Positions 8,661-61,616 of a stretch of DNA of 64,000 bases are shown here, one piece after another. Position 1 is the first letter of the stretch; the number at the start of each line of letters is the position of its first letter. The position numbers and the translations under genes are program-made. The stretch lies in contig NC_085842.1 of assembly GCF_035594765.1 (NCBI RefSeq), positions 269,995,749 to 270,059,748 on the forward strand, in the 5' to 3' direction. Below the pieces are notes generated by a model. That model saw nothing but the letters and a program-made list of their open reading frames with translations. It was not told the origin of the DNA and made no database searches. Origin of the DNA: Anolis carolinensis. Lineage: Eukaryota.

Positions 8661-9231
8661 GCCTCACCTCTATTGTGCAGTGCAGTTTTAACTAATCCAC
8701 TCAGGGGATTCAATAAAGAAGAAATAAATAATTACAATTACCATAATTTTTATATTACTTTTGTCCAGGATTTATTTTCCTCTAACTGTAGATGTAACTA
8801 GAACATGGTAGGTAATCCTGTACATCAATCACAATGGTCCATTGCTTGCGTGATTATTCTGCATGAATTATGATCCTGCAGCCTTCCCTTGCTTCCTGCA
8901 ATTTTTCCATCAAGCTAGGTCCTCTCCCTGGATACAGTACGACATGGTACAAATAGTGTTAGAATTATGGAGACTCTGCAAGCAGAAGGTTTTGGTGCTT
9001 CCCTCTCTCTGCCTTGCTGAAGGAAGAACACAAAGAGGAAAATATGTTGGCACCGTGCCTGTACCTGTGCTTTCCCTTTATTATCTTTCCCAGTGGAAGT
9101 GTTAGAGGGGAAACATACTCTGTGGGAGCTGCCATGTCGAAGCATTTCTGAGCTTGATTTTAATAATACTAAGCCTGAATGACTGGGGAGTAGCTTTGAA
9201 TACTTTTCTGCTGCAACCATATTACTATGTA

Positions 9232-9554
9232 CAGTAGAGTCTCACTTAACCAACATTCGCTTATCCAACCTTCTGGATTATCCAATGCATTTTTGTAGTC
9301 AATGTTTTCAATACATCGTGATATTTTGGTGCTAAATTTATAAATACAGTCATTACAACATAACATTACTGCATATTGAACTACTTTTTCTGTCAAATTT
9401 GTTGTGTAACATGATGTTTTGGTGCTTAATTTGTAAAATCATAACCTAATTTGATGTTTAATAGACTTTTCCTTGATCTCTCCTTATTATCCAACATATT
9501 CGCTTATCCAACGTTCTGCTGGCCTGTTTATGTTGGATAAGTGAGACTCTACTG
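9232..9554. mobile_element. Tc1/mariner-type MITE, family A
   Basis: TIR cagtagagtctcactta / taagtgagactctactg flanked by TA; further copies at 31635, 37304, 47823 and 61017. Confidence 0.9.
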
Positions 9555-10069
9555 TAGTTACAATTTGTCTCATCCACATATTGTTGGATAGTCCTTTTCT
9601 CAAGGCTCTACTCTAAGCATGATCTTCTTGAAGCTTCTTTGGTTATTGCTAGACTTTAGAAAAACCGAGTTAAGAGCATCATCTCGTTCTATTATATTCA
9701 GATATATCGTGTTCATTGAGGCTTTGTTCCAACTAATTGAATGTGAAAATGTGTATATATGCTGCACAGACAACATTTCCCACCTCAGGTGTATATCTTA
9801 ATCAGGGATGCTTCAGGCACATAATTTGGCCTTTATAGGCTATTTTGCAAGATCACTCACTTCTCCTGTGAATTAAGAGCCTAAATGTTAAAAGAATTAG
9901 AGTGGATTTTCAAGCGCTTTGGAATTGTTTGGGAATACATTGACCTAATGATAGCTCATTGGTGTGTTAGTAAACCAGGAGCTATGGAAACATGCCCTCC
10001 ACTATGTGCCTTTCTCTTAGCTTTAAATCATGGTTTAGCTTATACTTGTATGGAAGCTAATCATGTTTT

Positions 10070-30533: not shown

Positions 30534-30835
30534 CTAGCTGTGCCCAGCCACACGTTGGTGTGGCGTTGTCTGGTGGTGTTGGTGAGAAATTGTTGAGGTA
30601 GTGGTGGTATTGAATGTTGTATGGTTGTCTTTATGTTTAGTATGCATTTGGTTGTTTGTGTACTGTGAAAGTGGTGAGGGTAGAGGGGGTCTATGTCCCT
30701 GTGTAGTATTGTATAGTATTTATACGTTGTCCATGTGTTGTGAATGCTTGGATTGTGTCCTGCTGCATAGTAGAAAGAGTTGGGCTGGATGGCCCTTAGG
30801 GGTCTCTCCAAACTCTTGGATTCTATGCTTCTATG

Positions 30836-30873
<38 letters not shown>

Positions 30874-31175
30874 CATCATCATCATTATCATCATCATCTT
30901 CTTCATCATTATTATGTAGAGGCTGGATGGCCATCTGTCAGGAGTGCTTGGATTGTGTCCTGCATGGCAGAATTGGGTTGGACTGGATGGCCTTTAGGGG
31001 TGTCTCCTAACTGTCTGATGCTATGATTCGATGTGTATTATTATTGTGTAGATATTGGATGGCCATCTGTCAGGAGTGGTTGGATTGTGTCCTTCTGCAT
31101 GATATAAGGAAGTTGAACTGGATGATCCTTAGGGGTGTCTGCTAACCTTAAGATTGTATGTTCTTCTTCTTTTTC

Positions 31176-31246
<71 letters not shown>

Positions 31247-31492
31247 GAGAGGCTGGCTGGCCATCTGTTGGGAGTGCTTGGATTGTATCATCCAATGGCA
31301 GAGTTGGGTTGGACTGGATGGCCTTTAGGGGTCTCTCCTAACTGTCCGATTCTATGATTCGATTTGCATTATTATGGTGCAGCTCTTGGATGGCCATCTG
31401 TCAGGAGTGCTTGGTTTGTGTCGTCCTGCATGGTAGAGGGAAGTTGAACTGGATGATCCTTAGGGGTCTTTCGTAACCTTAGGATTGTATGA

Positions 31493-31538
<46 letters not shown>

Positions 31539-32439
31539 GAGAGGCTGGGTGGCCATCTGTTGGGCGTGCTTGGATTGTGTTCTCCATGGGAGAATTGGGT
31601 TGGACTGGATTACCACAGTAGTTATTTCATATTACAGTAGAATCTCACTTATCCAACATTCGCTTATCTAGTGTTCTGGATTATCCAACGCAGTCTGCCT
31701 TTTAGTAGTCAATGTTTTAAATTCATTGTGATATTTTGGTGCTAAATTTGTAAATACAGTAATTACAACATAGCATTACTGAGCATTGAACTACTTTTTC
31801 TGTCAAATTTGTTGTATAACATGATGTTTGGTGCTTAATTTGTGTAATCATTACCTAATTTGATGTTTAATAGGCTTTTTCTGAATCCATTCTTATTATC
31901 CAACATATTCACTTATCCAACATTCTGCCGGCCTGTTTATGTTGGATAAGTGAGACTCTACTGTATATTTATAATCTTATATTATCTGCTTAGACCTGTA
32001 TTACACAGCTGTATAAAATGCACACTGAAGTGAATTATCTGGCAGTGTGGACTCGAGATAATCCAGTTCAAAGCAGATACTATAAGATTATAAATGGGTA
32101 ATATAGCTGTGTGGAAGGGCCTTGACTCTACACTGCCATATAATCCAGTTAAATTCAGATAATCTGTATCTTATAGGCAGTGTGGAAGAGGCCTAAGTGA
32201 GGCCTAACTGTGCCTGTGCCCTGGGCTGAGTAGGTTGCTAGGAGACTAAGTGGGCAGCAATTGGATAAAAAATAATTATTCCTCTCCCTCTAATTAGGAC
32301 TTTATTTTTCTTTTCTTTTTGTTGTATGAACATAGAGGCATGGATGAGGGGTTGTGCTGCCAAGTTTAGTTTTTCTGGGATGTGTAGTTTTGTTGTTTTG
32401 TCCTAGGCCGAAATTTCATTACCTTTTTATACATATAGA
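30534..32439 (-). mobile_element. Non-autonomous Helitron carrying TE-derived cargo
   Basis: Minus strand TC...CTAG termini in an A|T site; hairpin gccacac-gttg-gtgtggc; contains tandem CR1-like 3' ends, a Tc1 MITE (31635-31963) and Harbinger-like pieces. Confidence 0.75.
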
Positions 32440-34496: not shown

Positions 34497-35772
34497 ATAA
34501 TAATAATAACTTTATTTTTATATCCCACCCCATCTCCCCGAAGGGACTCGGGGCGGCTCACAACAGGGACAAGCCCGAAACAACGACACAACATATTTGA
34601 CAAAACTTAAAACATTTCAACGATACACAAAATTAAATGATGGACAATACATTAAAATCCAAGCAGATAAAATCAGAGTAATTAAAAGCAAACCAGTGGG
34701 GATAAAGTGCTGTATCATAGAAATGAGTAACAGTGATAAAGTGCCATATGGTTTTATAAACATAAAAAAGTATTCTGATGACAACTCTTATTGGGCCTAT
34801 TCATTCAAATGCGCTCCAGAACAACCATGTTTTCAATTCCCAGCGGAAAATGGGCAGGGAAGGAGCTAGACTGATCTCCCTGGGGGGAGAGAGTTCCAGA
34901 GCTGGGGGGCCAGTGCCAAAAAGGCCCTCTCCCTCGTCCCCACCAGCCGCATTTGAGACAAAGGCGGGAGCAAGAGGAGCGCCTCCCCAGTTGATCTTAG
35001 GGTTCGCGTCAGTTCGTAGGAGAGGAGGCGATCATGGAGATAGGCAGGTCCTGAACCGTTTAAGGCTTTATAGGTAATAACCTGCACCTTGAATTGGGCC
35101 CGGAAACTCATCGGTAGCCAGTGGAGCTGTTTAAACAAAGGAGATGACCGTTCTCTGTACCTAGCTCCTGTTATTAATCTGGCTGCTGATCTCTGAACCA
35201 ACTGAAGTTTCCGAACTGTCTTCAAAGGCAGCCCCACGTAGAGTGCATTGCAGTAATCCAACCTGGAGGTGACTAAGTCAGACTTCACGCGGTACGGTCG
35301 CAGCTGGCGCACAAGTTTTAACTGCAAAAGCCCTCTCTGCCACCGCCGACACCTGAGCATCAGGTGTCAGCGCTGAGTCCAGGAGGACCCCCAAGTTGCG
35401 GACCTGTGTCTTAAGGGGGAGTGCGACCCCGTTTAGCACAGGTTGCCACCCTATGCCTTGATCGGCCGCACGACTGACCTGGAGGACCTCTGTCTTGTCA
35501 GGATTAAGTTTCAGCTTATTTTTATTTTATTTATTTACAGCATTTATATTCTGCCCTTCTCACCCCGAAGGGGACTCAGGGCGGATCACATTACACATAT
35601 AGGCAAACATTCAATGCCTTTTAACATAGAACAAAGACAAGACAAACATAGGCTCCGAGCGGGCCTCGAACTCATGACCTCCTGGTCAGAGTGATTCATT
35701 GCAGCTGGTTGCAGCTGGCTTGCTCTCCAGCCTGCGCCACAGCCCGGGCCCAATTATTCACCCTCATCCACT
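34497..35772 (-). mobile_element. L2 LINE fragment (RT C-terminal part)
   Basis: ORF 34866-35360: LVTSRLDYCNALYVGLPLKTVRKLQLVQRSAARL...LHWLP...RAFLALAPQLWNSLP. Confidence 0.9.
35518..35750 (-). mobile_element. Short tRNA-derived SINE inserted in L2
   Basis: Minus-strand head gggcccgggctgtggcgcaggctgg, gagttcgagg B-box-like motif, L2-like tail; L2 resumes after it. Confidence 0.8.
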
Positions 35773-37303
35773 TCTTTTGATACATTTTTTACAGACTACA
35801 GAAGCAAGATAGATAGGGCTGGGGAGGGACTGAAATTGAAATACTACTAGTATTCTTCCTGTGGGGACTTAAGGGAGTCAGGCTATCTCCTCCCCTCCCT
35901 AAACCACCCCTCTCCCACAAAGATAAAAAAATATTAAATATATCCCAAAAATGCCTTTTCCCAGCCCCCACCCCCCAGCGCATGCCCACCCTCACCTCCC
36001 TAACAAAATAGTAAAAAAGTACTCAAAGATATTAAACTGAGGAAAATTTAATAAAATTGCTAAAGAAAAATATTGGAATTGAGTCAAACATGTAATCTGC
36101 TTTCTTTCTCTGATTGGCTCAGGCAAGGCTAAGGAGAAAAAACCCTGCGTGCGTGCAGCTGTTACCATAGCACAGCTGAAAGCAGCCGATTTCGGCTGCC
36201 ATGTGGTTCGTTTTGGCCAAGTCAGTTCAAGTCCAGTTGCCCATCCCATTTCTGGAGGGTAGGTTTCCAAAACTTCCAGAATTCCCGGATCCGTTTTGAA
36301 AAATGGTGCCATGTACACTCTTAGCGGTGACATAATGAGGTCACCACATTATTGCTTGAAGTCACACACAGGAAAACAGAAGATAGTGGAGCCAGTTGCT
36401 GTCACTATTGCTGGCCTATGTAAACAGCCCTGGAATATTTGATTAATTTAAATTAAAAATATTACAGATTATCTTAATTTTGTTCAAGATCAGGAACAAA
36501 ATCACTTGTGGAGATAAATAATGAGTCGATTTACACAAGTAGGCTGCAGTAGGAAGCAGTACATTTATCAGAATATAAAGTATCATTGCCAGTAAAGTGA
36601 GTTCTGTTAAAACATGTATTTTTGTAATGTGAGTTGACAAGATCCTAGGATGTGGTGGGCTTTCCATCACTGGAGGTTATTAAATCTGTGTTATTGTTAT
36701 TTCTTGGTTGCTTTAGCTATGGAATCCTTCATGGTAGAGGAATGGATTAAATGCCCATTAGGGTTCTTTCTTGTTATGCAAGACAGTGGTTCTAGTTCAT
36801 AAACTCACATACCTACAGGAGATTTTAGAAATACCTCATAACTGCGAATGATCAAACACTTTGATTGGACACAAAACTTTGTAGACCCAGTGGGGACATT
36901 TGTGCAGCAGTAGCTTTCTTGTGGAAATAAATTTGATTTCTTTTTACCTAAATTCTTTTCATACCAAAGTAAGGTCTTGCCACTGCACATTTTGCACTTA
37001 TGTGTCTATGTATAGCAACAACAACCTCAAAGTGAATCCTTTGTTTGAACAATTCAGTTCATCTTCATACTTGTTTTAACTGTCCTCTGAAAAGCTGTAT
37101 ATATCTCATAATTTCTGTTATTTTCTATTTCAATGGATGCTTAACCCTCATCTGCTGATGCTACAGTTCATAGTAAGTCACCTTCTTTTGTTCAAACTGA
37201 ACATGCTGGCTACCAGAGAGGTCTTACTCTGCATAAATAGTCTTCTCCTCCTATATTCCAGTACAATGATTTGAATTTGTGAAATTTTTACGTTAAGTGC
37301 TTA

Positions 37304-37647
37304 CAGTAGAGTCTCGCTTATCCAACCGTAGCTCATCCAATGTTCTGTATTATCCAATGCAGTCTGCCTTTTAATAGTCAGTGTTTTTGTAGTCAATGTT
37401 TTCAATATGTTGCAATGTTTTGGTGCTAAATTCGTAAATACACTAATTACTACATAACATTACTGTGTATTGAACTGCTTTTTCTGTTGATTTGTTGTAA
37501 AGCATGATGTTTTGGTGCTTAATTTGTAAAATCATAACGTAATTTGACATTTTATAGACTTTTCCTTAATCCCTCCTTATTATCGAACATTTTTGCTTAT
37601 CCAGTGTTCTGCTGGCCCATTTATGTTGGATAAGCAAGACTCTACTC
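37304..37647. mobile_element. Tc1/mariner-type MITE, family A
   Basis: Same TIR and internal sequence as 9232-9554. Confidence 0.85.
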
Positions 37648-38604
37648 TATTTTTAAACTTGGGCAATTGGCCATATTATAATAAACATTTTAACTGCTTA
37701 TAGATGAACCTTGAATTCTGAAGCTACAGGACAGTATAATATATATATTAAATAGGGAAAATAACAATTAATTAGTATTTCATGTAACTGGTGTGCTTGT
37801 ATGTTTTGTTTATGCAATCAGAACTTGAACTTGGACTCAAAACTAGTGTACATTATTTTAATATATCTACACTGAGTACTTTTGTTAGTGAGAAATCCAC
37901 TTTGTAGACATTAAGATTCCCCAAATCCACAGTGAATAAATTGCTTACAAATCTCTACAGATTGTTTTGAACACAGTGCTGTTAGCCACCTGCAATTTAA
38001 TTTTAAAACAAATCTCTTCAGTTCTAAAAGTTAGCAGGTTTCTGTATAATTGTACTCTAAGGAACTTCAAACATTATGCTTTCAAAGTAGTATTTTTAAA
38101 CAATTCATAATACACAATATTTGACAATAGATAAAATGGCATAAAACATCTCAATGTAAATTAGTTGTATCTCATGTGTAATAAAATCTCAAGACAAAGA
38201 GGTAAGATGTCAAAATGTTCGTGCATTCTCTTGTGATTAATTTTGTATTAAACCTCTTACTGGAAACACCTTAAAACTTAGCATTGGTTCATAAATTTCC
38301 CCAAACCATATTGTTCATATTGGTCTGTTGTCAGCCATAATTATACAGTCTTTGGAAAGTAGTTTTAACTACAGTATGTTCAGTCTAATATCAAGATTTA
38401 AAATATTATTATAACCTGCTTTTCCCTCTTAAATGAGACTCAAAGCAGCTAGACAGATCTGTAAATCAATGAAATTAGAAAAAAGGAAATAGATTTCCAT
38501 ATTTAGATAAATTTCCTAAACAATGACTTGGGTCCAGTATCTTTCAGTAGAAAACAGCTTGGGTCCAGCACAGTATTTCCAGTAGCTAAACGGAGAAAGT
38601 AGTA

Positions 38605-46284: not shown

Positions 46285-46940
46285 TTATATGGCATCCCAC
46301 AAGGTGCCTTTCTATCCCCAATGCTTTGTAACATTTAGATGAAATTTCTGGGAGAGATCATCTAAAGACATGGGGCAGGGTGTTATCAATATGCTGTTTA
46401 TATCCACATTTATTTCTCAATGCCTTCAAAAACAGCCTCAGCTAAGGATAGTGTGTCTCCTGGGACTGAATGCTTGGAGGAGGTAATGAGCTGGATAAGA
46501 AAAAACAAATTGAAGCTGAATCCAGATAAGACAGAAGTGCTTTCCATTAAGAGTTCTAACAGAGAGATTGAGGTATATTAGCCAGTTCTGGATGGGGTTA
46601 TACTCCCCCTGAAGCTTGGGAGTGCTCTGCAACTTGGGAGCTCTCCTAGATCCACCTCTCCAAACGTCAGGCGAGGTAGATGTGATGGTAAGGAGTGCTT
46701 ACTACCAGCTTCGGCTGATACACCGGCTGTCCCTTCCTAGAATCCAAGGACATAAAGATGGTGGTAAATGCGCTGATAACCTCAAGGTTGGACTTCTGTA
46801 ATGCACTGTACATTGGGTACCTCTGTACCAAGTTCAGAAACTCCAATTAGTTCAAAACATGGCAACTAGATTGATTACAGAAACATCTAGGAGTGAGCAT
46901 ATTACACACATATTAATGTCAATCCACTGGTTGCCAGTTA
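46285..46940 (+). mobile_element. Degenerate L2 LINE RT fragment
   Basis: Remnants of G(I/V)PQG, YA(D)D, LKLNPDKTE, SRLD(F)CNAL and IHWLP motifs with stops and frameshifts. Confidence 0.8.
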
Positions 46941-47510: not shown

Positions 47511-47822
47511 AACATAGAAAGTTGTTACTTATGTTTTATACTTTTTTTTACAAATGAAATACATTTTATATTATTATATTTGTAATGCTGATGTAAAGGT
47601 CATAATTTATCCTGCTTTTCAAGTGAAATGAACATTGCCAGCTAACCACTGAGATTTACTACAGAGCAGGGCAACATGGCAATGACTAGCTGGGGAGCTT
47701 TTCAGCAGTATCAGCATATTTAACAGAAAGCCATAAGGATAATATCTTAGTTGCGGGAAGAAAGTAGGATTTTGGTATGGAACTGTTGTATCACTAACCT
47801 ATTAACAGTAATCAAGGATTTA

Positions 47823-48145
47823 CAGTAGAGTCTCACTTATCCAACATTCGCTTATCCAACATTCTGGATTATCTAACGCATTTTTGTAGTCAATATTTTG
47901 AATACATCGTGATATTTTGGTGCTAAATTCATAAATACAGTAATTACTACGTAGCATTACTGCATATTGAACTACTTTTTCTACCAAATTTGTTGTATAA
48001 CATGAAGTTTTGGTGCTTAATTTGTAAAATCATAACCTAATTTGATGTTTAATAGGCTTCTTCTTAATCTCTCCTTATTATCCAACATATTCACTTATCC
48101 AATGTTCTGCCGGCTCGTTTATGTTGGATAAGTGAGACTCTACTG
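47823..48145. mobile_element. Tc1/mariner-type MITE, family A
   Basis: Perfect TIR cagtagagtctcacttatccaacat, flanked by TA. Confidence 0.9.
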
Positions 48146-48595
48146 TATTTAATCAGTCTAGTTATCCATCTCTTAAATTCTGATGAACTTATGGGGTTGA
48201 GATCCTTACCCATACTAATCTTGATTAACTTAAGTACAGGTTTATTTCCCTGAAATATGCTTTGTTGCCAATTAAGCACTCCTATGATACATCCAGACTT
48301 TGCTTCAAGCTCCTCGCCACCTCTATTTTTCATTTTCTGCTATTTGTGGAGGTTACAGAACTGAAGGAATGTCTCGTAATTATATGTAATACTTCCATAT
48401 TCTGAGTTTCCCTGTTTCTATTATATTTCTGGAATATTGCCTTAGTTATTTCTTCAAGAAACTCTTGCCCCTCATTCATGCTGCTGCTCATAGAGTTCTG
48501 CTCTTATGAGCATGCCTCCTCTGATTCTGCATTGAGAGACTGAGAATGAAATAAAATATGCAGTGAAGATTTTGTTGTGATATCTAGTTTTTCTT

Positions 48596-49335: not shown

Positions 49336-50033
49336 ACTTCAATGAAGGAAATGCTTCCTCATTGTATGATGGATAACTTGATGGGAAAAAAAGTTGAACA
49401 CTAAGATCCAGTTAATGATATGTTTACATCAGTTGCTATATAACCAGCTTAGGTGAACATTACTTCAAGGGAAAATTGATGGTTTCTACAGCTTTCCTGA
49501 AATAAAGTGGCTAAAAAAGCAGAATCCTGTTTCAGTAGTTCACTCAGTTCTGGACCAGTGGAATCTCAAACAGGTCAAACATTTGTCCTCATCATCTAAC
49601 TGTTCTTTGCATTCTGTGCTTGCCTTTCCCTCCTCCCAGTCTATTCTAGCTAGTAATGGATCTTGAGTCTCCACTGAAAATATATTATGTCGCGGGATGC
49701 TGGTTGTGAAGTGATTTATAGTTTCAAATTCACAACCTCCCTGAACCATTGAAACCTGTATAGCAAGTGTCCCAGAAGCAAGTAGATATATAGCAGAGTC
49801 CTTTTTTCACAGCAAACACGCATGCTTCAGCCCATCTATCAGCTGAGTACAACTGCCAGCATCTGACCTTATCTACACACTGTATAGTAAACTCATGGAT
49901 TCAGGTTTCACTCAAAATTTCTGGAGGCTTTAATCTTCACCATTGCGATACATACAAATGTACAAACAGGATTCACAGACCCACTTTCCTTGTACTTGCA
50001 AACAATCAGAGTCATCAAATAGTCACATACAAC

Positions 50034-50509
50034 CAGGCCCGGCCCAACACAGGATGCCGACCATGCCCCCGCGTTGGGCGCCATGTTCTGGGGGCGCTAT
50101 GGAGCACCCGGGAGGCGGGGCCAGACCTGGCCCCGCCTCCCGCGCCCTGGCCCCGCCTCCTACGCTGCGCTCCCTGGCCTCGCCGCCCGCACAGCGCAAG
50201 AGGAGGGGCCAGGAAGCACCGTGCGGGAGGCAGGGCCGAATCTGGCCCCGCCTCCCACGCTGTGCGCCGTGGCCCGGCCGGCCTGGCCCAGCCAGGCTGC
50301 GGTGGGAGTCTTTCTAGGCCTTCACCGTGGCCTGGAAGGACTTTCCCGCCTCGCCCTTGCCCCGCCTCCCGCGTAACGCGAGAGGCGATGTCAGGGCGCG
50401 CAGCGTGGGAGGCAGGGCCTCCCGTGTTGCGTGGCCACGCCTCCCGCGCTGCGGGGGGGGATTGTTTTTTATTCCGCGTATCTTTTAAAATTACCTCGGG
50501 CCGGTTCTG
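50034..50509. mobile_element. GC/CpG-rich non-autonomous hAT element
   Basis: TIRs caggcccggccc / gggccggttctg; perfect 8-bp TSD catacaac (50026-50033, 50510-50517). Confidence 0.85.
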
Positions 50510-53352: not shown

Positions 53353-55151
53353 TATAAAACAAACACACAATTATAATAGCAATAGAAAGTCATGAAATAA
53401 TTTGTTATTCCTTAAAAAAAAGAAGAAGAGAATCTTCTAGAAAGTATTAAACTTACATGAAAGCATCTTGAGATCAATTAAGATAGAGAATATCATTGCT
53501 TTATGAAGTGTACTTCATACCAAAATAAATTTGTTTTTCTGTTCTAAAATAATTTGTTTAATATGTACCAGGGTGATATGTAAACTTCAGAATGGATTTC
53601 AGTCAGGTTTCACATGGCATCTGTGTAACAATTTGAGGGGCTGGATAGAAAAAAAACCCTATTACAATACATAGTAAGAGTATGAACTCCATTCAAACCA
53701 GTGTTATTACTTCTGAGTAAACCCACATGGGATTGTTCAGTAAGGTTATGTGTATGCAGGCCTTTGAAGAGTTGGATTTACAAGTTGCTAATTCAAATAC
53801 TCATTTAAAGGCTCAAAGGAATAAATGTTTAGCCTGAGGTTAGACAAGCAGTGATCAAAAGGATGACGGCAAAAACAAGAGATGAAACTGTTTTCTTTTT
53901 GCTTCATCCACGAAGTAAACAACAATCAATAAGGTTAAATTATTGAACATTTAAGTTCAGATTAGGAGAAATTTGATTATAAAAATGGATAGTCCTAAAT
54001 AAATGGTTGAGTAGCTATGTTGTGTTCCCCTTCCCCTGGGAAAGGAGTTTGTACGAATGGATTAACTATTACTCTTCCTTGGTTAGCTTTGTGCTGCTGC
54101 TCTGGAAATCCATGTTTCTGGATGAAAGTATAACTTAAAATTGTTAACATGAACTTCTGTTTACAAAGAAGTTCAGGATTGGGTTCATTTGAAGTCTGCA
54201 GATTATGGCACAATACAGTTTTTAAGTTCAGGTCTGTTTCTTATTTGGTTACATTCCTTAGCCTGTGCTAGTTCTAGTACCTGAGTGGTGGATACTAATC
54301 CATATTGCAGAGATTGAAATGTAGATGTTGCTGGACTGCAATTCTTTGTGTATTTAGCTAGCATAGCAAATGGTAAAGAATGCTAGGAATTGCAGTTCAG
54401 TATCTAGAATGTCACAATTTTTACATCCTTGCTCTATCTGAACATCCCATGCTATGTCACAATACCTTACCATTTTTTCAGAAATACAACCTACCTTATA
54501 CATATTTTGAAAAGCAGGGGAGGGATTTATTAAAGTTCAAATGTGAAATACTTATTCAGTATGCAGCATACTGCAGCAGACAGAAGACTGTATAATGAAA
54601 ATAAATTGAGGATGGTTTGATAGACTGAATTGTAAAATGTTCCTGATAGTCTAAAAACACAAAATAGCTTTTATTTTAGCCAAGGATTTCATTGTTCACT
54701 ATTTCTTTATTTTGATGTCTTACTTGAAGAGTAAAATGTACCAAGAAAATAATGTAAATATAAAGCTTCTTTTTGTGTTCTTTTGGTTTTCCACAACAAG
54801 GGTGTGAAATATCAAATTTATTTTATTAAGATGTGTAATAGCAAGAAAACATATTCTTCCAATAGTAATGAAATTATTCAAATTATACAAAATTTTAATT
54901 ACATTTTCATTAGAATTCAAATTGCTTATAGAATGAACACACACAAACACCAAGAACTTGGATAATTAATTATTTTAATATATTTATTAAAATGATTTAA
55001 TAACATTGCATTATAGTTGTAACTTCATAAGGGATACCTTCATTCCTTTTGTTGTCTAAGTGTTCATTTTTGTTAATTTTGTTAATTCTACAAGATGGAA
55101 AAGGGGTAGTATGACATGGCTCAAATGCTGTTTCCTACTGTACTCAATGGT

Positions 55152-56031
55152 TGTGATGACTCATGGGCCATGTAGTCCCGTTCCTAACACTGTTGTGACA
55201 GATGAAGAGGAAAACTTAGGTTTCCCACCGTTTCAGCCAGAATTGGAGCTTTTTCAGCCAGAATTGGAGCCCTTGCACCTGCAGGAGATTTGCCTTCCAG
55301 AAGTCTGCCAAACAAGCCTTGAGCCGAAATCTCCCCCATTTTCTCGCCGTGATTATTATAAACAACAGAAAGGCGCTCAGGAGGCGTCTCGCAGGAGCGC
55401 TAGAATTGCTGCCAGGCATTCAGCTGATTAAGCCTGCTTCCCATGGGAAACTTTAGGGAGTCATGCATCTGGACACAGAGAATGGCTTTCGGTTCTGGTT
55501 CCCCAGAGAATTGTTCTTTGGCGGGAAAACGAGACCCTACTTAGGTGTTTTGCCCACGTAGGAATCTTGCGGAGTCAATTCGTCAGCTTCGGGAGTAGGT
55601 TGTGTGTGGACTACGCTACTCCCGCGTCCAAGCCCTTTGCTCCCGTTTCCAGCCTTGCCTTGCTTTCCAGGACCTTGCCTTGCTCCACGGACCTTGCCTT
55701 GCTTTCCGGACCTCGCCACGAATTTACCACGGATCTTGTTCTTGCTCCTCGTTTCTTGTTGCCTTGAATTAAGCCTAGTGTTCCAAGAATCAAGTTTACT
55801 TCCTAGCCTTGCTTAAGTTTCATGGACTAAAGGACCTTGTCATCTCCCCTCACTTTGCTTGGCAAAGTGAGTGTTTCGGTTACTGGATTACAACTTTGGA
55901 CCTTAATATTTCATATTGGACATTGTTTTCTTGGACTAATTTTGACCTTTCCTGAAAGGTCTACTTCTGAACTATTTTATACACTGGCCTCTGTGTATGG
56001 TTATTGGTGCTCTGCAGCCTGGGTCCTGACA
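55152..56031 (+). repeat. 5' LTR (880 bp; lacks 51 bp including AATAAA)
   Basis: Starts tgtgatg, ends cctgaca; shared portion matches the 3' LTR with one visible substitution. Confidence 0.93.
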
Positions 56032-56033
56032 GT

Positions 56034-56043
56034 TTGACTCCGC
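56034..56043 (+). promoter_or_regulatory. Self-priming primer-binding site
   Basis: ttgactccgc lacks the TGG of a tRNA PBS and is the exact reverse complement of gcggagtcaa at 55569-55578 inside the 5' LTR. Confidence 0.75.
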
Positions 56044-56073
56044 CACCTTAAGCACCAATTAACCTAGGCCAGA

Positions 56074-57060
56074 ATGTCTACCGGAGCCGGACCGGGTGAC
56101 CAACCACTCAGCTACACCATCGCCAAGGATGAAGTGGACAGAATCCGTGATATGCTCCATACGCAGGAGGGAGAAATACGGGGCTTGAAGGAACGCGGAA
56201 CCCGTCTCCCTGCCCTGGCGTTGCCAACCAAGTTTTCTGGAGAAGCTTCCAAGGTTCATGTTTTCCGTCGTCAATGCCAGGCATACCTAGAAGCCCGTCA
56301 GGCCGAGTTTCCTCAAGAAGACATCAAGGTGGCGTGGATTTACAGTCTCCTAGACGGCCCAGCGGCCAATTGGGCCACGGCGCTGTTCGATGAAGCCTCC
56401 CCACACCTAAGTTCCGCGCAAAACTTCCTGAATCACCTTAAGGTGACTTGGGGGATCGAGGACAATTTAGAGGCGGCCGGCCACAAACTCCGGCGCCTTT
56501 CTCAAGGGGACAGGCCCTTGTCCCAGTACATAGCCGAGTTCCGAGTGCTGGCCCAAAGCACCGGTTGGAATGACATAGCCCTCAGAGGACAGTTTCGGGA
56601 GGGCCTCAACATCGAGATGTTGGAAGAAATCTCCAAGGTGGATCCTCCAAACTCTCTTGAAAGACTCATTGACCAATGTTTACGAGCCGAAGTCATGCTT
56701 GCCAACAGAAAACAATGGCTCCGAGGCCAGAGTGGAAGAGCTGTAGCAAAACCTCCCGCTCCCGCCGGCATCCAGCCACGTCCAGTGTGGAGACCCCCGC
56801 CACCAGCCCCATACCCCAGAGACAGCGGGGAGGTGCCGATGCAATTGGGCAACGTGCGTCCCAGATTAGACGTTGCCGAGAAGGCCCGCCGCCAACGCTT
56901 AAACCTCTGTTGGTACTGCGGAGACGGGGGCCACTTCGCCAGAGAATGTCCAGCCAAAAGAAAGCCCGCCGCTCATTTGGCGGCGGCGTCTTCCGTGGAG
57001 ACAGAGACGGCCGAGGCGGCTAGCGCAAAGTCGGCGGGGGAAGCCAACGACCGGGCGTAG
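56074..57060 (+). CDS. gag: Gag (capsid plus CCHC zinc knuckle), PEG10/RTL-like type
   Basis: 328-aa ORF: LPTKFSGE, LSQGDRPLSQYIAEFR, QFREGL, VPMQLG and CWYCGDGGHFAREC motifs. Confidence 0.95.
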   Translation: MSTGAGPGDQPLSYTIAKDEVDRIRDMLHTQEGEIRGLKERGTRLPALALPTKFSGEASKVHVFRRQCQAYLEARQAEFPQEDIKVAWIYSLLDGPAANWATALFDEASPHLSSAQNFLNHLKVTWGIEDNLEAAGHKLRRLSQGDRPLSQYIAEFRVLAQSTGWNDIALRGQFREGLNIEMLEEISKVDPPNSLERLIDQCLRAEVMLANRKQWLRGQSGRAVAKPPAPAGIQPRPVWRPPPPAPYPRDSGEVPMQLGNVRPRLDVAEKARRQRLNLCWYCGDGGHFARECPAKRKPAAHLAAASSVETETAEAASAKSAGEANDRA

Positions 57061-60000
57061 AGAGGCTCGCCAACCCGGTCAGAAACCCCACTCAAGAACC
57101 GCCAACCGGGGTCCTATTTCTCCTAGTGGTCACCTTGTGGTCAGCGAAAAAAGGACCCGTCATGATCCATGCCATGATAGACTCGGGAGCAACAAACAAT
57201 TTCATCGACAGAGAGTATGCCGACTCTCTGGGATTACAATATCACGATTTCAAGAACGCTCGGGTGGTGCAAGCCATAGATGGCCGCCCCCTAAAGACAG
57301 GTCCAGTAAGCCAATGGTCTGAACCCACCAGAATGTGGATAAGGGAACATATGGAAGAGATTTCCTTCTTTGTTACCGAGGTTCCTCACTTCCCTGTGAT
57401 TTTGGGGATTCCATGGCTGACGCTCCACGACCCCAGCATCTCTTGGACCAACAGAGAACTGCAGTTTGCTTCTAAATATTGCCAAAACCATTGTCTTGTA
57501 GCCAAGGTCTGTCACGCCACAGACGCTGAATCCATCATCACCTTGCCCAAGAAATACTCCGACTTTTGGGATGTTTTCAATGAAAAAGAAGCCGCGAGAC
57601 TACCCCCGCATAGGCCTTATGATTGTGCCATTGACTTGGTGGAGGGGCCCCCGATCCCGCGAGGACATCTCTACTCCTTGACTGAACCAGAGCAAGAAGC
57701 TCTCAGGGAGTTCATAGAGTCAAACCTCCGCAAGGGGTTCATCAGACCCTCTCAATCCCCAGCCGCTTCCCCAGTGATGTTTGTGAAAAAGAAGTCAGGG
57801 GACCTACGCTTGGTGGTGGACTATAGAGCATTGAACAATATCACTAAGCGGAACCGCTATCCCCTGCCTTTGATCTCGGACCTATTAGACTGGCTTCGAG
57901 GGGCCAAGGTTTACACCAAGCTGGATCTTCGGGGGGCTTATAATCTAGTTCGCATCAGGGAGGGGGACGAGTGGAAAACCGCCTTCCAGACTAAATTCGG
58001 ATTATTCGAGTCCCTGGTCATGAATTACGGTTTATGTGGAGCTCCCGCAACGTTCCAGCATTTTGTCAATGATATCTTTCAGGATTATCTAGATCGGTTC
58101 TTGATCATCTACTTGGACGATTTTTTGGTGTTTTCTAGATCACAATCAGAACATGAGAACCACGTCAGAATGGTGTTACAACGATTGCGGGATCATGGAC
58201 TTTATGCCAAGCTGGAAAAATGCGCTTTTGATCTACAAGAGGTAGATTTCCTGGGATACCGTGTCTCGCCACTAGGGCTCTCCATGGACCCGGCAAAGGT
58301 TTCAGCAGTATTGGAATGGCGGGCGCCAACCAACAAGAAAGAGGTGCAGCGTTTCTTGGGGTTCGTGAACTATTACCGCAAGTTCATTCCAGACTTTGCC
58401 CGCTGGTCTGATCCAATCACCAGCTGCATCCGTGGGAAACAGCCTTTCCGCTGGACGGAGCAAGCAGAGAAAGGGTTCCAGCAACTAAGGAAATTATTCA
58501 CGTCCCAGCCTATCCTTCAGCACCCAGATCCTAAAACCCCTTTTGTTGTGCAGGCTGACGCTTCCGATGTGGCAATTGGGGCTGTACTCTTGCAACCAAT
58601 GGGAGATCATCTTCACCCTTGTGCTTTTTACTCCCGTCAACTAACAGCCCCAGAGAGAAATTACACTATTTGGGAAAAAGAACTTTTGGCCATAAAGGCA
58701 GCCTTTGAAACTTGGAGACATTGGTTAGAAGGGGCCAAATTTCCCATTGAGGTCCATACTGATCATCGGAATCTAGAACATCTAAGAACTGCCCGCAAGT
58801 TAAATCAGAGGCAGCAGCACTGGGCTTTATTCTTTGAGCGTTTTGACTTCCAGATCCATTATGTAACCCCAGCTCAGACCAAGCAAGCAGATGCTCTATC
58901 ACGGAAACCAGAATATGCTGCAGGGCGCAGAGAGACCTTTGAATCCCAATTGCTGCAGCCCGAGAACTTTGCCACGCTCACAGTGGGGAACACCAAATCC
59001 ACTCCAATTGAATCTACTTCCTCTACTCCAGGGCCCCTTTGTGCTCAGGAAATCAGGGCCAGTCAACAGGCGGGTGCCTGGGCTCAAGATCAACTTCGCC
59101 AAGGACTACATTTTCCCTTCTCGCTTAAGGATGGGTTGCTTTGCTATAGAAATCACGTCTACATCCCTCCAGGACCGGGCAGGGAGAAGGCACTTCGTCT
59201 GTGTCATGACTGCAAGCCAGCAGGGCATTTCGGATTATTTAAAACCATGCATTTGATCCTAAGAGATTTCTGGTGGCCCAAGATCCGCAAGGATGTGGAA
59301 AAATATGTCAATACCTGCCCAGTATGTCAGCGTTCCAAGACAAGAAGGGAGAAGCCCTCAGGGCTACTGCATCCCCTTCCTACTCCATCTCGTCCATGGG
59401 AAATAATTTCTGCGGATTTTATCACTGACCTACCACCTTCCCTTGGATTCACCACGATCCTAGTGGTGGTGGACCTTTTTACCAAGTTAGCCCATTTCAT
59501 TCCCTGCGATGGCCTTCCCACGGCCAAAGAGACTGCAGATTTATTCCTTCAGCATGTTTTCAGATTACATGGTTTGCCCAAGAGTTTGGTCACAGACCGT
59601 GGGTCTCAATTCACCTCTCGTTTCTGGAAAGCACTACAAAAACTATTGGGCATAGACTCTCGTTTATCTTCGGCTCACCATCCCCAAACGGATGGGCAAA
59701 CTGAGCGCACCAATGCCACTTTGGAACAATACCTTCGCTGTTATGTAAACTATCAGCAGGACAATTGGGCTTCCCTGTTGCCGCTGTCGGAGTTTGCCTA
59801 CAACAATGGTGTCCAGGCTTCAACTAAAGAAACCCCGTTCTTTGCAAACTACGGCTTCCATCCACGTTTCTTTCCTTCTGTCATTGAAACCTCAGAAGTT
59901 CCCGCAGCAGAGGACTGGCTGCAAGAGCTCACAGCAGTGCAACAACTTTTGCTCCAGCAACTAGATCAAGCCAAGGAGGACTATAAACGCCACACTGACA

Positions 60001-60584
60001 ATCATCGCCAGCCGGGCCCCGAAATCAAGGTAGGAGACCGGGTTCTTCTGTCCACTCGCTTTTTGCCCTCCCACCGCCCTTGCCGGAAGCTAGATGCCCG
60101 TTTCATTGGTCCCTATCCAGTGGTGGCGCAACTTAACCCCGTGACTTTCAAACTTCAACTTCCGCGCTCTATGCGCATTCATCCAGTGTTTCATTGCTCC
60201 CTGCTCCTTCCGGCGGATGGTGTGCGCCCTGATGCAGACCGGCCGGCCCCCACTCCTGTTTTGGTGGATGGGGAGGAGGAATTCGAGGTTCAGGACATTT
60301 TGGATTCTCGCTTTCATCGCCGCCGCCTTCAGTATCTCATTGACTGGGTAGGTTTTGGCCCCGAAGAACGCTCTTGGGAAGACGCTTCCACAGTCCATGC
60401 CCCCAATTTAGCCCGCCGCTTCCACCAGGCCTACCCCGCCAAGCCGCGGCCCCGCACCTCGGGAAGAGAGCCCATTTTGGAGAGGGGCCTTGAGGAGGGG
60501 GATAGTGTGATGCTCCTCGTTTCTTGTTGCCTTGAATTAAGCCTAGTGTTCCAAGAATCAAGTTTACTTCCTAGCCTTGCTTAA
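57024..60584 (+). CDS. pol: Pol polyprotein (protease, RT, RNase H, integrase, chromodomain), -1 frame relative to gag
   Basis: MIDSGA protease, YLDD RT, ADASD/TDHRNL RNase H, HHCC plus D-D-E integrase, GPY motif, chromodomain FEVQDILDSR...YLIDWVGFGPEERSWE; frame is open from 57024 (ORF track starts at 57126). Confidence 0.95.
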   Translation, partial: RKVGGGSQRPGVERLANPVRNPTQEPPTGVLFLLVVTLWSAKKGPVMIHAMIDSGATNNFIDREYADSLGLQYHDFKNARVVQAIDGRPLKTGPVSQWSEPTRMWIREHMEEISFFVTEVPHFPVILGIPWLTLHDPSISWTNRELQFASKYCQNHCLVAKVCHATDAESIITLPKKYSDFWDVFNEKEAARLPPHRPYDCAIDLVEGPPIPRGHLYSLTEPEQEALREFIESNLRKGFIRPSQSPAASPVMFVKKKSGDLRLVVDYRALNNITKRNRYPLPLISDLLDWLRGAKVYTKLDLRGAYNLVRIREGDEWKTAFQTKFGLFESLVMNYGLCGAPATFQHFVNDIFQDYLDRFLIIYLDDFLVFSRSQSEHENHVRMVLQRLRDHGLYAKLEKCAFDLQEVDFLGYRVSPLGLSMDPAKVSAVLEWRAPTNKKEVQRFLGFVNYYRKFIPDFARWSDPITSCIRGKQPFRWTEQAEKGFQQLRKLFTSQPILQHPDPKTPFVVQADASDVAIGAVLLQPMGDHLHPCAFYSRQLTAPERNYTIWEKELLAIKAAFETWRHWLEGAKFPIEVHTDHRNLEHLRTARKLNQRQQHWALFFERFDFQIHYVTPAQTKQADALSRKPEYAAGRRETFESQLLQPENFATLTVGNTKSTPIESTSSTPGPLCAQEIRASQQAGAWAQDQLRQGLHFPFSLKDGLLCYRNHVYIPPGPGREKALRLCHDCKPAGHFGLFKTMHLILRDFWWPKIRKDVEKYVNTCPVCQRSKTRREKPSGLLHPLPTPSRPWEIISADFITDLPPSLGFTTILVVVDLFTKLAHFIPCDGLPTAKETADLFLQHVFRLHGLPKSLVTDRGSQFTSRFWKALQKLLGIDSRLSSAHHPQTDGQTERTNATLEQYLRCYVNYQQDNWASLLPLSEFAYNNGVQASTKETPFFANYGFHPRFFPSVIETSEVPAAEDWLQELTAVQQLLLQQLDQAKEDYKRHTDNHRQPGPEIKVGDRVLLSTRFLPSHRPCRKLDARFIGPYPVVAQLNPVTFKLQLPRSMRIHPVFHCSLLLPADGVRPDADRPAPTPVLVDGEEEFEVQDILDSRFHRRRLQYLIDWVGFGPEERSWEDASTVHAPNLARRFHQAYPAKPRPRTSGREPILERGLEEGDSVMLLVSCCLELSLVFQESSLLPSLA

Positions 60585-60850
60585 ATTTCATGGACTAAAG
60601 GACCTTGTCATCTCCCCTCACTTTGCTTGGCAAAGTGAGTGTTTCGGTTACTGGATTACAACTTTGGACCTTAATATTTCATATTGGACATTGTTTTCTT
60701 GGACTAATTTTGACCTTTCCTGAAAGGTCTACTTCTGAACTATTTTATACACTTGCTTTTATTAACCTTATATATTTCCTCAATAAAGATATTAGATAGT
60801 TTCTGGCCTCTGTGTATGGTTATTGGTGCTCTGCAGCCTGGGTCCTGACA
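60506..60850 (+). repeat. 3' LTR (345 bp; lacks 586 bp of U3 and start of R, retains AATAAA at 60782-60787)
   Basis: tgtgatg joins directly to ctcctcgtttc (equivalent to 55745); ends cctgaca followed by the TSD. Confidence 0.93.
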
Positions 60851-61016
60851 ATGGTAGATATAGAGGGAATCTCTAAGAGAGTTAAAAGTGTGTTCTGCCA
60901 GCAGGGTGCAGCATTCATACTTTATAAACAGTAACCATTTTAGTTAATTTTGAGAAATTGAAAAAACAAAGAGATTTTAATTGTGACCAACACCCCCCCC
61001 CCCACCATAATAGCTA

Positions 61017-61339
61017 CAGTAGAGTCTCACTTATCCAACATAAACGGGCCGGCAGAATGTTGGATAAGCGAATATGTTGGATAATAAGGAGGCATTAAGG
61101 AAAAGCCTATTAAACATCAAATTAAGTTATGATTTTACAAATTAAGCATCAAAACATCAGGTTAGACTATAAATTTGGCAGAAAAAGTAGTTCAATACGC
61201 AGTAATGCTATGTAGTAATTACTGTATTTTCGAATTTAGCACCAAAATATCACGATGTATTGAAAACATTGACTACACAAGTGTGTTGGATAATCCAGAA
61301 CGTTGGATAAGCGAGTGTTAGATAAGTGAGACTCTACTG
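61017..61339. mobile_element. Tc1/mariner-type MITE, family A (opposite orientation)
   Basis: Same TIRs, internal sequence reverse-complemented relative to 47823-48145. Confidence 0.9.
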
Positions 61340-61485
61340 TATTCATAACTTTAAGGGGATTGCACTTATAACTAAAGAAATTATTTTAAAAGGCAATGTT
61401 TAAAGCTCTGAAGCGAGTGAGAATAAATGATGCACTACATTTTGGCTTAGCAAATGACTGCTTTCTCTGCATTCCCTAATCTCAC

Positions 61486-61616
61486 NNNNNNNNNNNNNNN
61501 NNNNNNNNNNNNNNNNNNNNNNNNNNNNNNNNNNNNNNNNNNNNNNNNNNNNNNNNNNNNNNNNNNNNNNNNNNNNNNNNNNNNNNNNNNNNNNNNNNNN
61601 NNNNNNNNNNNNNNNN
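61486..61616. other. Assembly gap
   Basis: Run of N. Confidence 1.

Follow-up and report, generated by a model that had tools for sequence, protein, structure and literature searches.

Boundaries, LTRs and predicted priming structure of the element

The retrotransposon copy described here occupies positions 55152-60850 on the plus strand of the window, by which we mean the whole 64,000-nt stretch of Anolis carolinensis DNA that was analysed. On both sides it is bounded by an identical target-site duplication (55147-55151 and 60851-60855, both +) with a length of 5 bp, not 6 bp, and no second copy of the element is present within the window. While both LTRs possess TG...CA ends, they differ conspicuously in length, the 5' LTR (55152-56031, +) measuring 880 bp and the 3' LTR (60506-60850, +) 345 bp. 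Their common part consists of three blocks of 7, 241 and 46 bases, amounting to 294 bases with a single mismatch (55817 G / 60585 A). This mismatch lies in the 241-bp block of R common to both LTRs (55745-55985, +; 3' copy at 60513-60753). Missing from the 5' LTR is the counterpart of 60754-60804 (51 bp), a deletion at the junction 55985/55986 that can slide by 2 bp via CT microhomology. From the 3' LTR, in turn, the counterpart of 55159-55744 (586 bp) is absent, and the junction of this deletion at 60512/60513 shows 2 bp of TG microhomology. If the missing segments are added, both LTRs reach the same length of 931 bp (880 + 51 = 345 + 586). The initial annotation had given the same lengths, microhomologies and reconstructed length, together with about 290 shared bases and one mismatch, and we reproduce its coordinates and arithmetic throughout.

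The segment found exclusively in the 3' LTR (60754-60804, +), recognised by comparison of the LTRs, contains the only AATAAA motif within 55000-61000, at 60782. An AATAAA close to the LTR's 3' end is a typical trait of Sushi-clade elements (PMC3601003). We also considered the 51 bp as an insertion into the 3' LTR and rejected this reading on parsimony since the segment harbours the element's only AATAAA, and this at the clade-typical position. A purine-rich tract (PPT) at 60480-60505 (+), as read from the sequence, adjoins the 3' LTR.

Two bases past the 5' LTR a primer-binding site (PBS) of the self-priming type is located (56034-56043, +), which in all of its ten positions is the reverse complement of 55569-55578 (+), the putative self-primer and RNA 5' end, i.e. 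the start of R. A 10/10 match was reached in 42 of 20000 first-order Markov shuffles of the LTR. RNA folding predicts pair probabilities of 0.85 to 1.0 for the primer-PBS duplex and of 0.6 to 0.95 for a neighbouring 5-bp duplex, and folding of the whole region is no better than that of shuffled sequences (z = -0.05). As a candidate for the third duplex of the "pretzel", a U5-side arm (56003-56011, +) is complementary over 9 bp to the leader at 56051-56059. This duplex crosses the primer duplex and receives a probability of 0 in nested folding, a method in which crossing pairs cannot be represented. In the Tf1/sushi group, self-priming involves three duplexes, and the RNA 5' end serves as primer (10.1101/2022.12.06.519325, PMC4600332). 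The modelled primer/PBS duplexes of the present element match this structure, and self-priming is predicted for it.

Because the PBS pairs with 55569-55578 in 10 of 10 positions, we place the RNA start at about 55569. U3, the presumed promoter upstream of the self-primer, would thus comprise 417 bp (55152-55568, +), and R would be long, spanning roughly 420 nt in the present state of the 5' LTR. Neither TATAAA nor TATATA occurs in the roughly 200 bp upstream of 55569. An RNA start at this position implies that the 586-bp deletion of the 3' LTR takes away 410 bp of U3 along with the initial 176 bp of R, without which the first strand transfer cannot proceed normally, while the 51-bp deletion of the 5' LTR falls in R. 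In addition, a CCTTGCCTTGCT-type tandem repeat is seen in R of the 5' LTR (55652-55714).

Coding regions and the Pol tail encoded in U3

The gag frame (56074-57060, +) starts with an ATG at 56074 and encodes 328 amino acids with Pfam matches to DUF4939, Retrotrans_gag and zf-CCHC, corresponding to capsid-like domains and a CCHC knuckle. The product is colinear with the database proteins P0040 and P0041. The pol frame (57024-60584, +) lies in -1 phase to gag (offset 2 mod 3), with a putative frameshift. Its product exhibits the Pfam order PR-RT-RH-IN (residues 48-148, 254-414, 477-607 and 719-887), followed by an SH3 domain and, at the integrase C-terminus, by a chromodomain (PF00385, residues 1087-1135, E=1e-8), and finally by an aberrant tail of 24 residues derived from R. 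Neither gag nor pol contains an internal stop or a frameshift, and in the aligned stretches both are ungapped with respect to the closest family proteins. All 11 catalytic and zinc-binding motifs checked are present. A broken gag/pol frameshift junction was considered as well and rejected; P0040 has the same pol-frame residues at this site.

The closest three of 32 protein matches are Gypsy proteins of Anolis carolinensis, which represent clusters of 94, 366 and 1 members. With the first two of them the element shares 95% identity over Pol, and no gap occurs over 1122 amino acids against P0004. The named near matches outside Anolis are Gypsy/Tf2-like proteins of fish. Judged by its sequence features, all of those tested being present, the element is a Tf1/sushi chromovirus (Ty3/Gypsy) of an abundant Anolis carolinensis family; the sushi-like nature already proposed for it is borne out by Pfam order, chromodomain and self-priming PBS. 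It resembles Tf1, Tj1 and sushi-ichi in its PR-RT-RH-IN-chromodomain order, CCHC Gag, -1 phase and a PBS complementary to the 5' LTR and flanked by duplexes (10.1101/2022.12.06.519325, PMC4600332). In contrast to this group, it features a long R and a long coding tail in U3. Among the proteins retrieved, the unnamed P0042 (1027 aa) contains about 12 repeats resembling the C-terminal/zinc-knuckle region of Gag (41% identity) and is possibly a tandemly amplified gag fragment.

The coding tail is evident from an open frame of 92 codons in U3 of the 5' LTR (55153-55431, +), whose phase is that in which pol enters the 3' LTR. The encoded peptide, with RRSAR codons beginning at 55390, is 59 to 89% identical to the C-termini of P0003, P0004 and P0035-P0039 and corresponds to the C-terminal tail of the family integrase, although from its position in the 5' LTR it is untranslated. 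Family Pol extends about 85 to 97 residues into U3. In six of the eight named Anolis proteins retrieved (Pol/IN) the sequence runs from the chromodomain across the PPT into the U3 peptide, while P0035, a gene model of its own, has this peptide as its end and P0005 stops ahead of the LTR. Since five of the eight were retrieved using the U3 peptide as query, the unbiased count is two of three, which refers to cluster representatives rather than to individual cluster members: in the representatives of the two large clusters (94 and 366 members) the reading frame continues through a complete U3, and the third ends before the LTR.

In the copy at 55152-60850, the pol frame passes over the junction into R, where it adds 24 residues without relation to the family tail before it terminates. 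Hence, the 3' deletion truncates the integrase by removing about the last 92 Pol codons. As translation of the family proteins continues through an undeleted U3, the shorter 3' LTR represents a loss, and one that cuts coding sequence. As far as these sequences indicate, the family representatives normally possess a complete 3' U3. A search with the 46 residues spanning the junction yielded no match in 33 candidates at E<=10, a weak test confined to representatives (244-779 aa), whose sensitivity is limited in that members matching the first half of the region also remained unscored. The Anolis proteins named "Gypsy retrotransposon integrase-like protein 1" in UniRef (P0003, P0004, P0036-P0039) display the same read-through phase from chromodomain over PPT to U3; compared with them the present copy lacks the 3' U3 tail, has unequal LTRs and carries private substitutions of CpG type. 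With LTRs of 880 versus 345 bp and the Pol tail gone, it is not an autonomous full-length LTR element. Hence, the suggestion that gag and pol had been left open holds with regard to internal stops, but not to completeness, about the last 92 codons of pol being gone.

The family tail ends in an exact RRSAR in five of seven relatives, while the pattern R.S.RIAA occurs in all seven. HMGN proteins use RRSAR as the core of their contact with the acidic patch of the nucleosome (PMC12487698). We tentatively suggest from this likeness that the U3-encoded tail might, together with the chromodomain, take part in target selection by an HMGN-like binding to the acidic patch. The likeness comprises five residues without profile or structure support and is put forward as a lead only; more simply, the motif could be a basic nuclear-localisation signal. 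The last 32 residues gave no match to PDB sequences at E<=10, and the tail yielded no match in Pfam and no usable one in the ESM Atlas. In a literature search which lay outside subscription literature, we found no title describing an RRSAR-ended U3 tail in a vertebrate chromovirus. Precedent for a coding extension into the 3' LTR is provided by plant CRM elements of group A (PMC3059260), in which a CR motif replaces the chromodomain, whereas in the Anolis family the chromodomain is present and is joined by a U3 tail with an RRSAR-like end.

Two further observations concern this region. P0035 is a 166-residue model from Anolis carolinensis (NCBI LOC107983085 isoform X2), whose last 92 residues are the U3 peptide (89% identical); it corresponds to a predicted host transcript which runs into the first bases of a different LTR of this family. 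Furthermore, a tandem unit of about 18 bp is present within the coding tail at 55232-55272, where relatives differ by 5 to 7 residues.

Age, substitutions and genomic surroundings

The divergence of the LTRs amounts to 1/294, i.e. 0.34% (95% CI 0.009-1.9%), measured on a CpG-poor stretch (CpG o/e 0.16 in the 3' LTR), and Pol offers more information than the LTRs. The insertion, which had been called young on the same grounds, may accordingly be described as fairly young. At 44 positions of Pol, P0003 and P0004 agree with each other and both differ from the present copy. At ten of these all aligned Anolis relatives (at least three) agree, and five of these ten changes are of CpG-decay type as against two of the 34 others (Fisher p=0.004), the classification being inferred from the relatives' proteins and not from DNA. 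At positions 448, 599 and 991, the family residue is found in 22-23 of 26-29 aligned distant relatives and the residue of the copy in none of them; at position 290 the corresponding figures are 15 of 25 and 0. P0040 possesses the residue of the copy at eight of 13 positions checked, including position 260, one of the ten. Many of the Pol differences are thus subfamily traits. The occurrence of CpG-type changes at conserved sites of RT, RH and IN presents the pattern expected of a methylated copy that mutates without purifying selection, although some of the Pol substitutions may be tolerated. The open reading frames and the 11 intact motifs are compatible with youth alone, and the decay of Pol leaves time for deletions after insertion.

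In the vicinity of the element no host gene was identified by Pfam searches with 140 of 612 flanking stop-to-stop frames. They returned one match, a weak LINE-like RVT_1 fragment at 46366-46578 (+; E=6e-4). A LINE-like frame of 166 residues at 34866-35366 (-) has no Pfam match and presumably resembles the C-terminal part of an L2/CR1-type ORF2. Rfam gave no match in the window. About 4.7 kb upstream of the element a CpG-island-like stretch with repeated GC boxes (50040-50460; GC 0.69 and CpG o/e 0.82 in 50001-50500) is probably a host promoter. A MITE-like element of about 330 bp with short terminal inverted repeats occurs in five copies (9230-9560, 31633-31965, 37302-37649, 47821-48147 and 61011-61341), the last of which follows the 3' LTR downstream at a distance of 160 bp and is 79 to 91% identical to the others. 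At 30700-31590 about three units of some 331 bp, each with a terminal ATT microsatellite, are arranged head to tail.

Origin of the unequal LTRs

In our view the locus is most probably (with a probability of roughly 0.7) an ordinary decaying copy of an abundant Anolis Tf1/sushi family which suffered two independent deletions after insertion. Of the explanations offered by the initial annotation, chance, named last, fits the data best. What is directly observed is the anatomy, the primer-PBS complementarity, the loss of the family Pol tail and the pattern of substitutions. The copy would have inserted with two equal LTRs, each of which would later have undergone one host-repair deletion at 2 bp of microhomology, while pol meanwhile decayed at methylated CpGs. 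Microhomology at both junctions points to end-joining or slippage, from which deletions in LTR elements usually arise (PMC1940013); for at least 2 bp at each of them p=0.026. That both large deletions reside in LTRs speaks to some degree against decay, as two random deletions in a 6336-bp element would hit each LTR once with p=0.043, and no large deletion is seen in the 4474-bp interior, of which the coding parts were compared. So does the finding that there is no frameshift or stop, that 11 of 11 motifs are kept and that the LTRs differ at one of 294 bases. Reciprocal deletion is therefore mildly unusual for a single copy, though not for a family of hundreds: given this number, and an initial annotation that selected open reading frames, a few such cases are expected. 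Likewise, the look of a cassette is to be expected for a few percent of twice-deleted copies, and was noticed since the reading frames are still open. Illegitimate recombination deletes DNA of LTR elements in rice and fly, with some 0.1 deletions for every substitution, rates which refer to plants and flies and mostly to small deletions (PMC1940013). In anoles, large deletions are reported to fragment retrotransposons (PMC3787681, citing Novick 2009), and Gypsy insertions occur in large numbers (45,625 loci), most of them polymorphic (PMC7561263).

The main oddity, two large LTR deletions without any coding indel, keeps alive the idea that the asymmetry already existed at birth, with one or both deletions arising or being combined during reverse transcription. 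Slippage on plus-strand strong-stop DNA produces a deletion confined to the 5' LTR, an unrepaired loop one confined to the 3' LTR, and intermolecular strand transfers between different co-packaged RNAs give rise to unlike LTRs. The confinement of both lesions to LTRs, regions copied by separate synthesis steps, the low divergence of 1/294 and the location of the 3' junction 7 bp from the plus-strand start would suit such an origin. It requires, though, two rare events or pre-existing variants, the 3' junction is absent among the protein representatives, and the decay of Pol attests to time elapsed since insertion, so that we regard it as unlikely. A literature search covering titles and openings of abstracts revealed no precedent for natural reciprocal LTR deletion or for LTRs that are unlike at birth. 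We consider it even less likely that the assembly is a mosaic in which one junction, more probably that of the 51-bp deletion, stems from a sister copy's reads. The family is young and high in copy number, N gaps at 61486 and 63713 suggest an older draft assembly, and the 51-bp junction, 835 bp away from the unique left flank, is the less secure one. The duplication is, however, identical on both sides, and the 586-bp junction lies 339 bp from the right flank, which renders a mosaic of the large deletion unlikely. Moreover, the first 160 bp of the right flank and 1000 bp of the left flank are free of repeats within the window, and the copy diverges by 4-5% in Pol from the main clusters. Repeat collapse is not known to create junctions with 2 bp of microhomology.

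A functional asymmetry, be it an expressed, non-mobile Gag or Gag-Pol cassette that is retained or a parasitic form whose LTRs are rebuilt in each cycle, appears very unlikely to us. The initial annotation had pictured a cassette in which each LTR lost just the part dispensable at its end. Indeed, the 5' U3, the priming structure and the 3' poly(A) signal are kept, the latter making a transcript possible, but the 3' deletion is not limited to U3: it takes Pol codons and 176 nt of R. Selection for such a cassette, as early domestication or as a trans-acting helper supplying Gag or Gag-Pol, would follow the logic that loss of the 5' AATAAA affords more full-length RNA and loss of the 3' U3 prevents autonomous spread. 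While U3, self-primer duplex and 3' AATAAA are retained, gag and pol are open with their catalytic motifs, and RTL/SIRH genes came from the Sushi lineage, CpG-type changes at conserved positions of RT, RH and IN and the missing integrase tail make this selection highly improbable. Co-option is recognised by conserved synteny and evidence of selection (PMC8321522). The copy shares with PEG10 and RTL1 (RTL/SIRH) the retrotransposon lineage and the layout of gag plus -1 pol. These genes are, in contrast, old, fixed, syntenic and selected, whereas the Anolis copy, one among hundreds of related copies and visibly decaying, still possesses LTRs, target-site duplication and integrase.

Least probable of all, in our estimate, is a family-specific asymmetric design rebuilt in every cycle with the help of wild-type RNA. 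It is formally possible via three intermolecular transfers, and strong-stop DNA without a full partner in its own 3' R might be biased toward another RNA. At the 3' end this design is contradicted by the intact U3 of two of the three unbiased Pol representatives; altogether six Pol/IN representatives possess an intact 3' U3 (four of the six found via the tail search), and the junction tail was matched in none of the 33 candidates.

Returning to the copy twice deleted after insertion, its RNA, if transcribed, would start near 55569, might prime itself, would escape 5' polyadenylation and would end after 60782. The far end of the minus-strand strong-stop DNA lacks a partner in the 3' R, so that transfer could proceed only through the shared 241-nt block. 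Progeny would possess LTRs of 294 bp devoid of U3, self-primer and AATAAA, in agreement with their presumed self-inactivation, and would be dead ends. In self-inactivating (U3-deleted) retroviral vectors, deletion of the 3' U3 likewise results in promoterless progeny; the natural deletion found here goes further, taking 176 nt of R together with coding sequence of Pol, a loss that designed vectors avoid. With its truncated integrase, we infer the copy to be a replication dead end in cis, and it is probably silent. The copy might conceivably provide Gag or Pol in trans, albeit with an integrase lacking its tail.

If the locus were a retained cassette, it would represent a polymorphic starting point of a route to genes such as PEG10 and RTL1; if it were a parasitic form, unlike LTRs would be rebuilt by transfers with co-packaged wild-type RNA and both junctions would recur elsewhere in the genome. 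As an ordinary decaying copy, it is of little consequence in itself. The locus does illustrate that U3 can be coding, such that a "3' U3 deletion" may also affect Pol, and that in self-priming elements the LTR anatomy should be derived from the PBS instead of being taken for granted.
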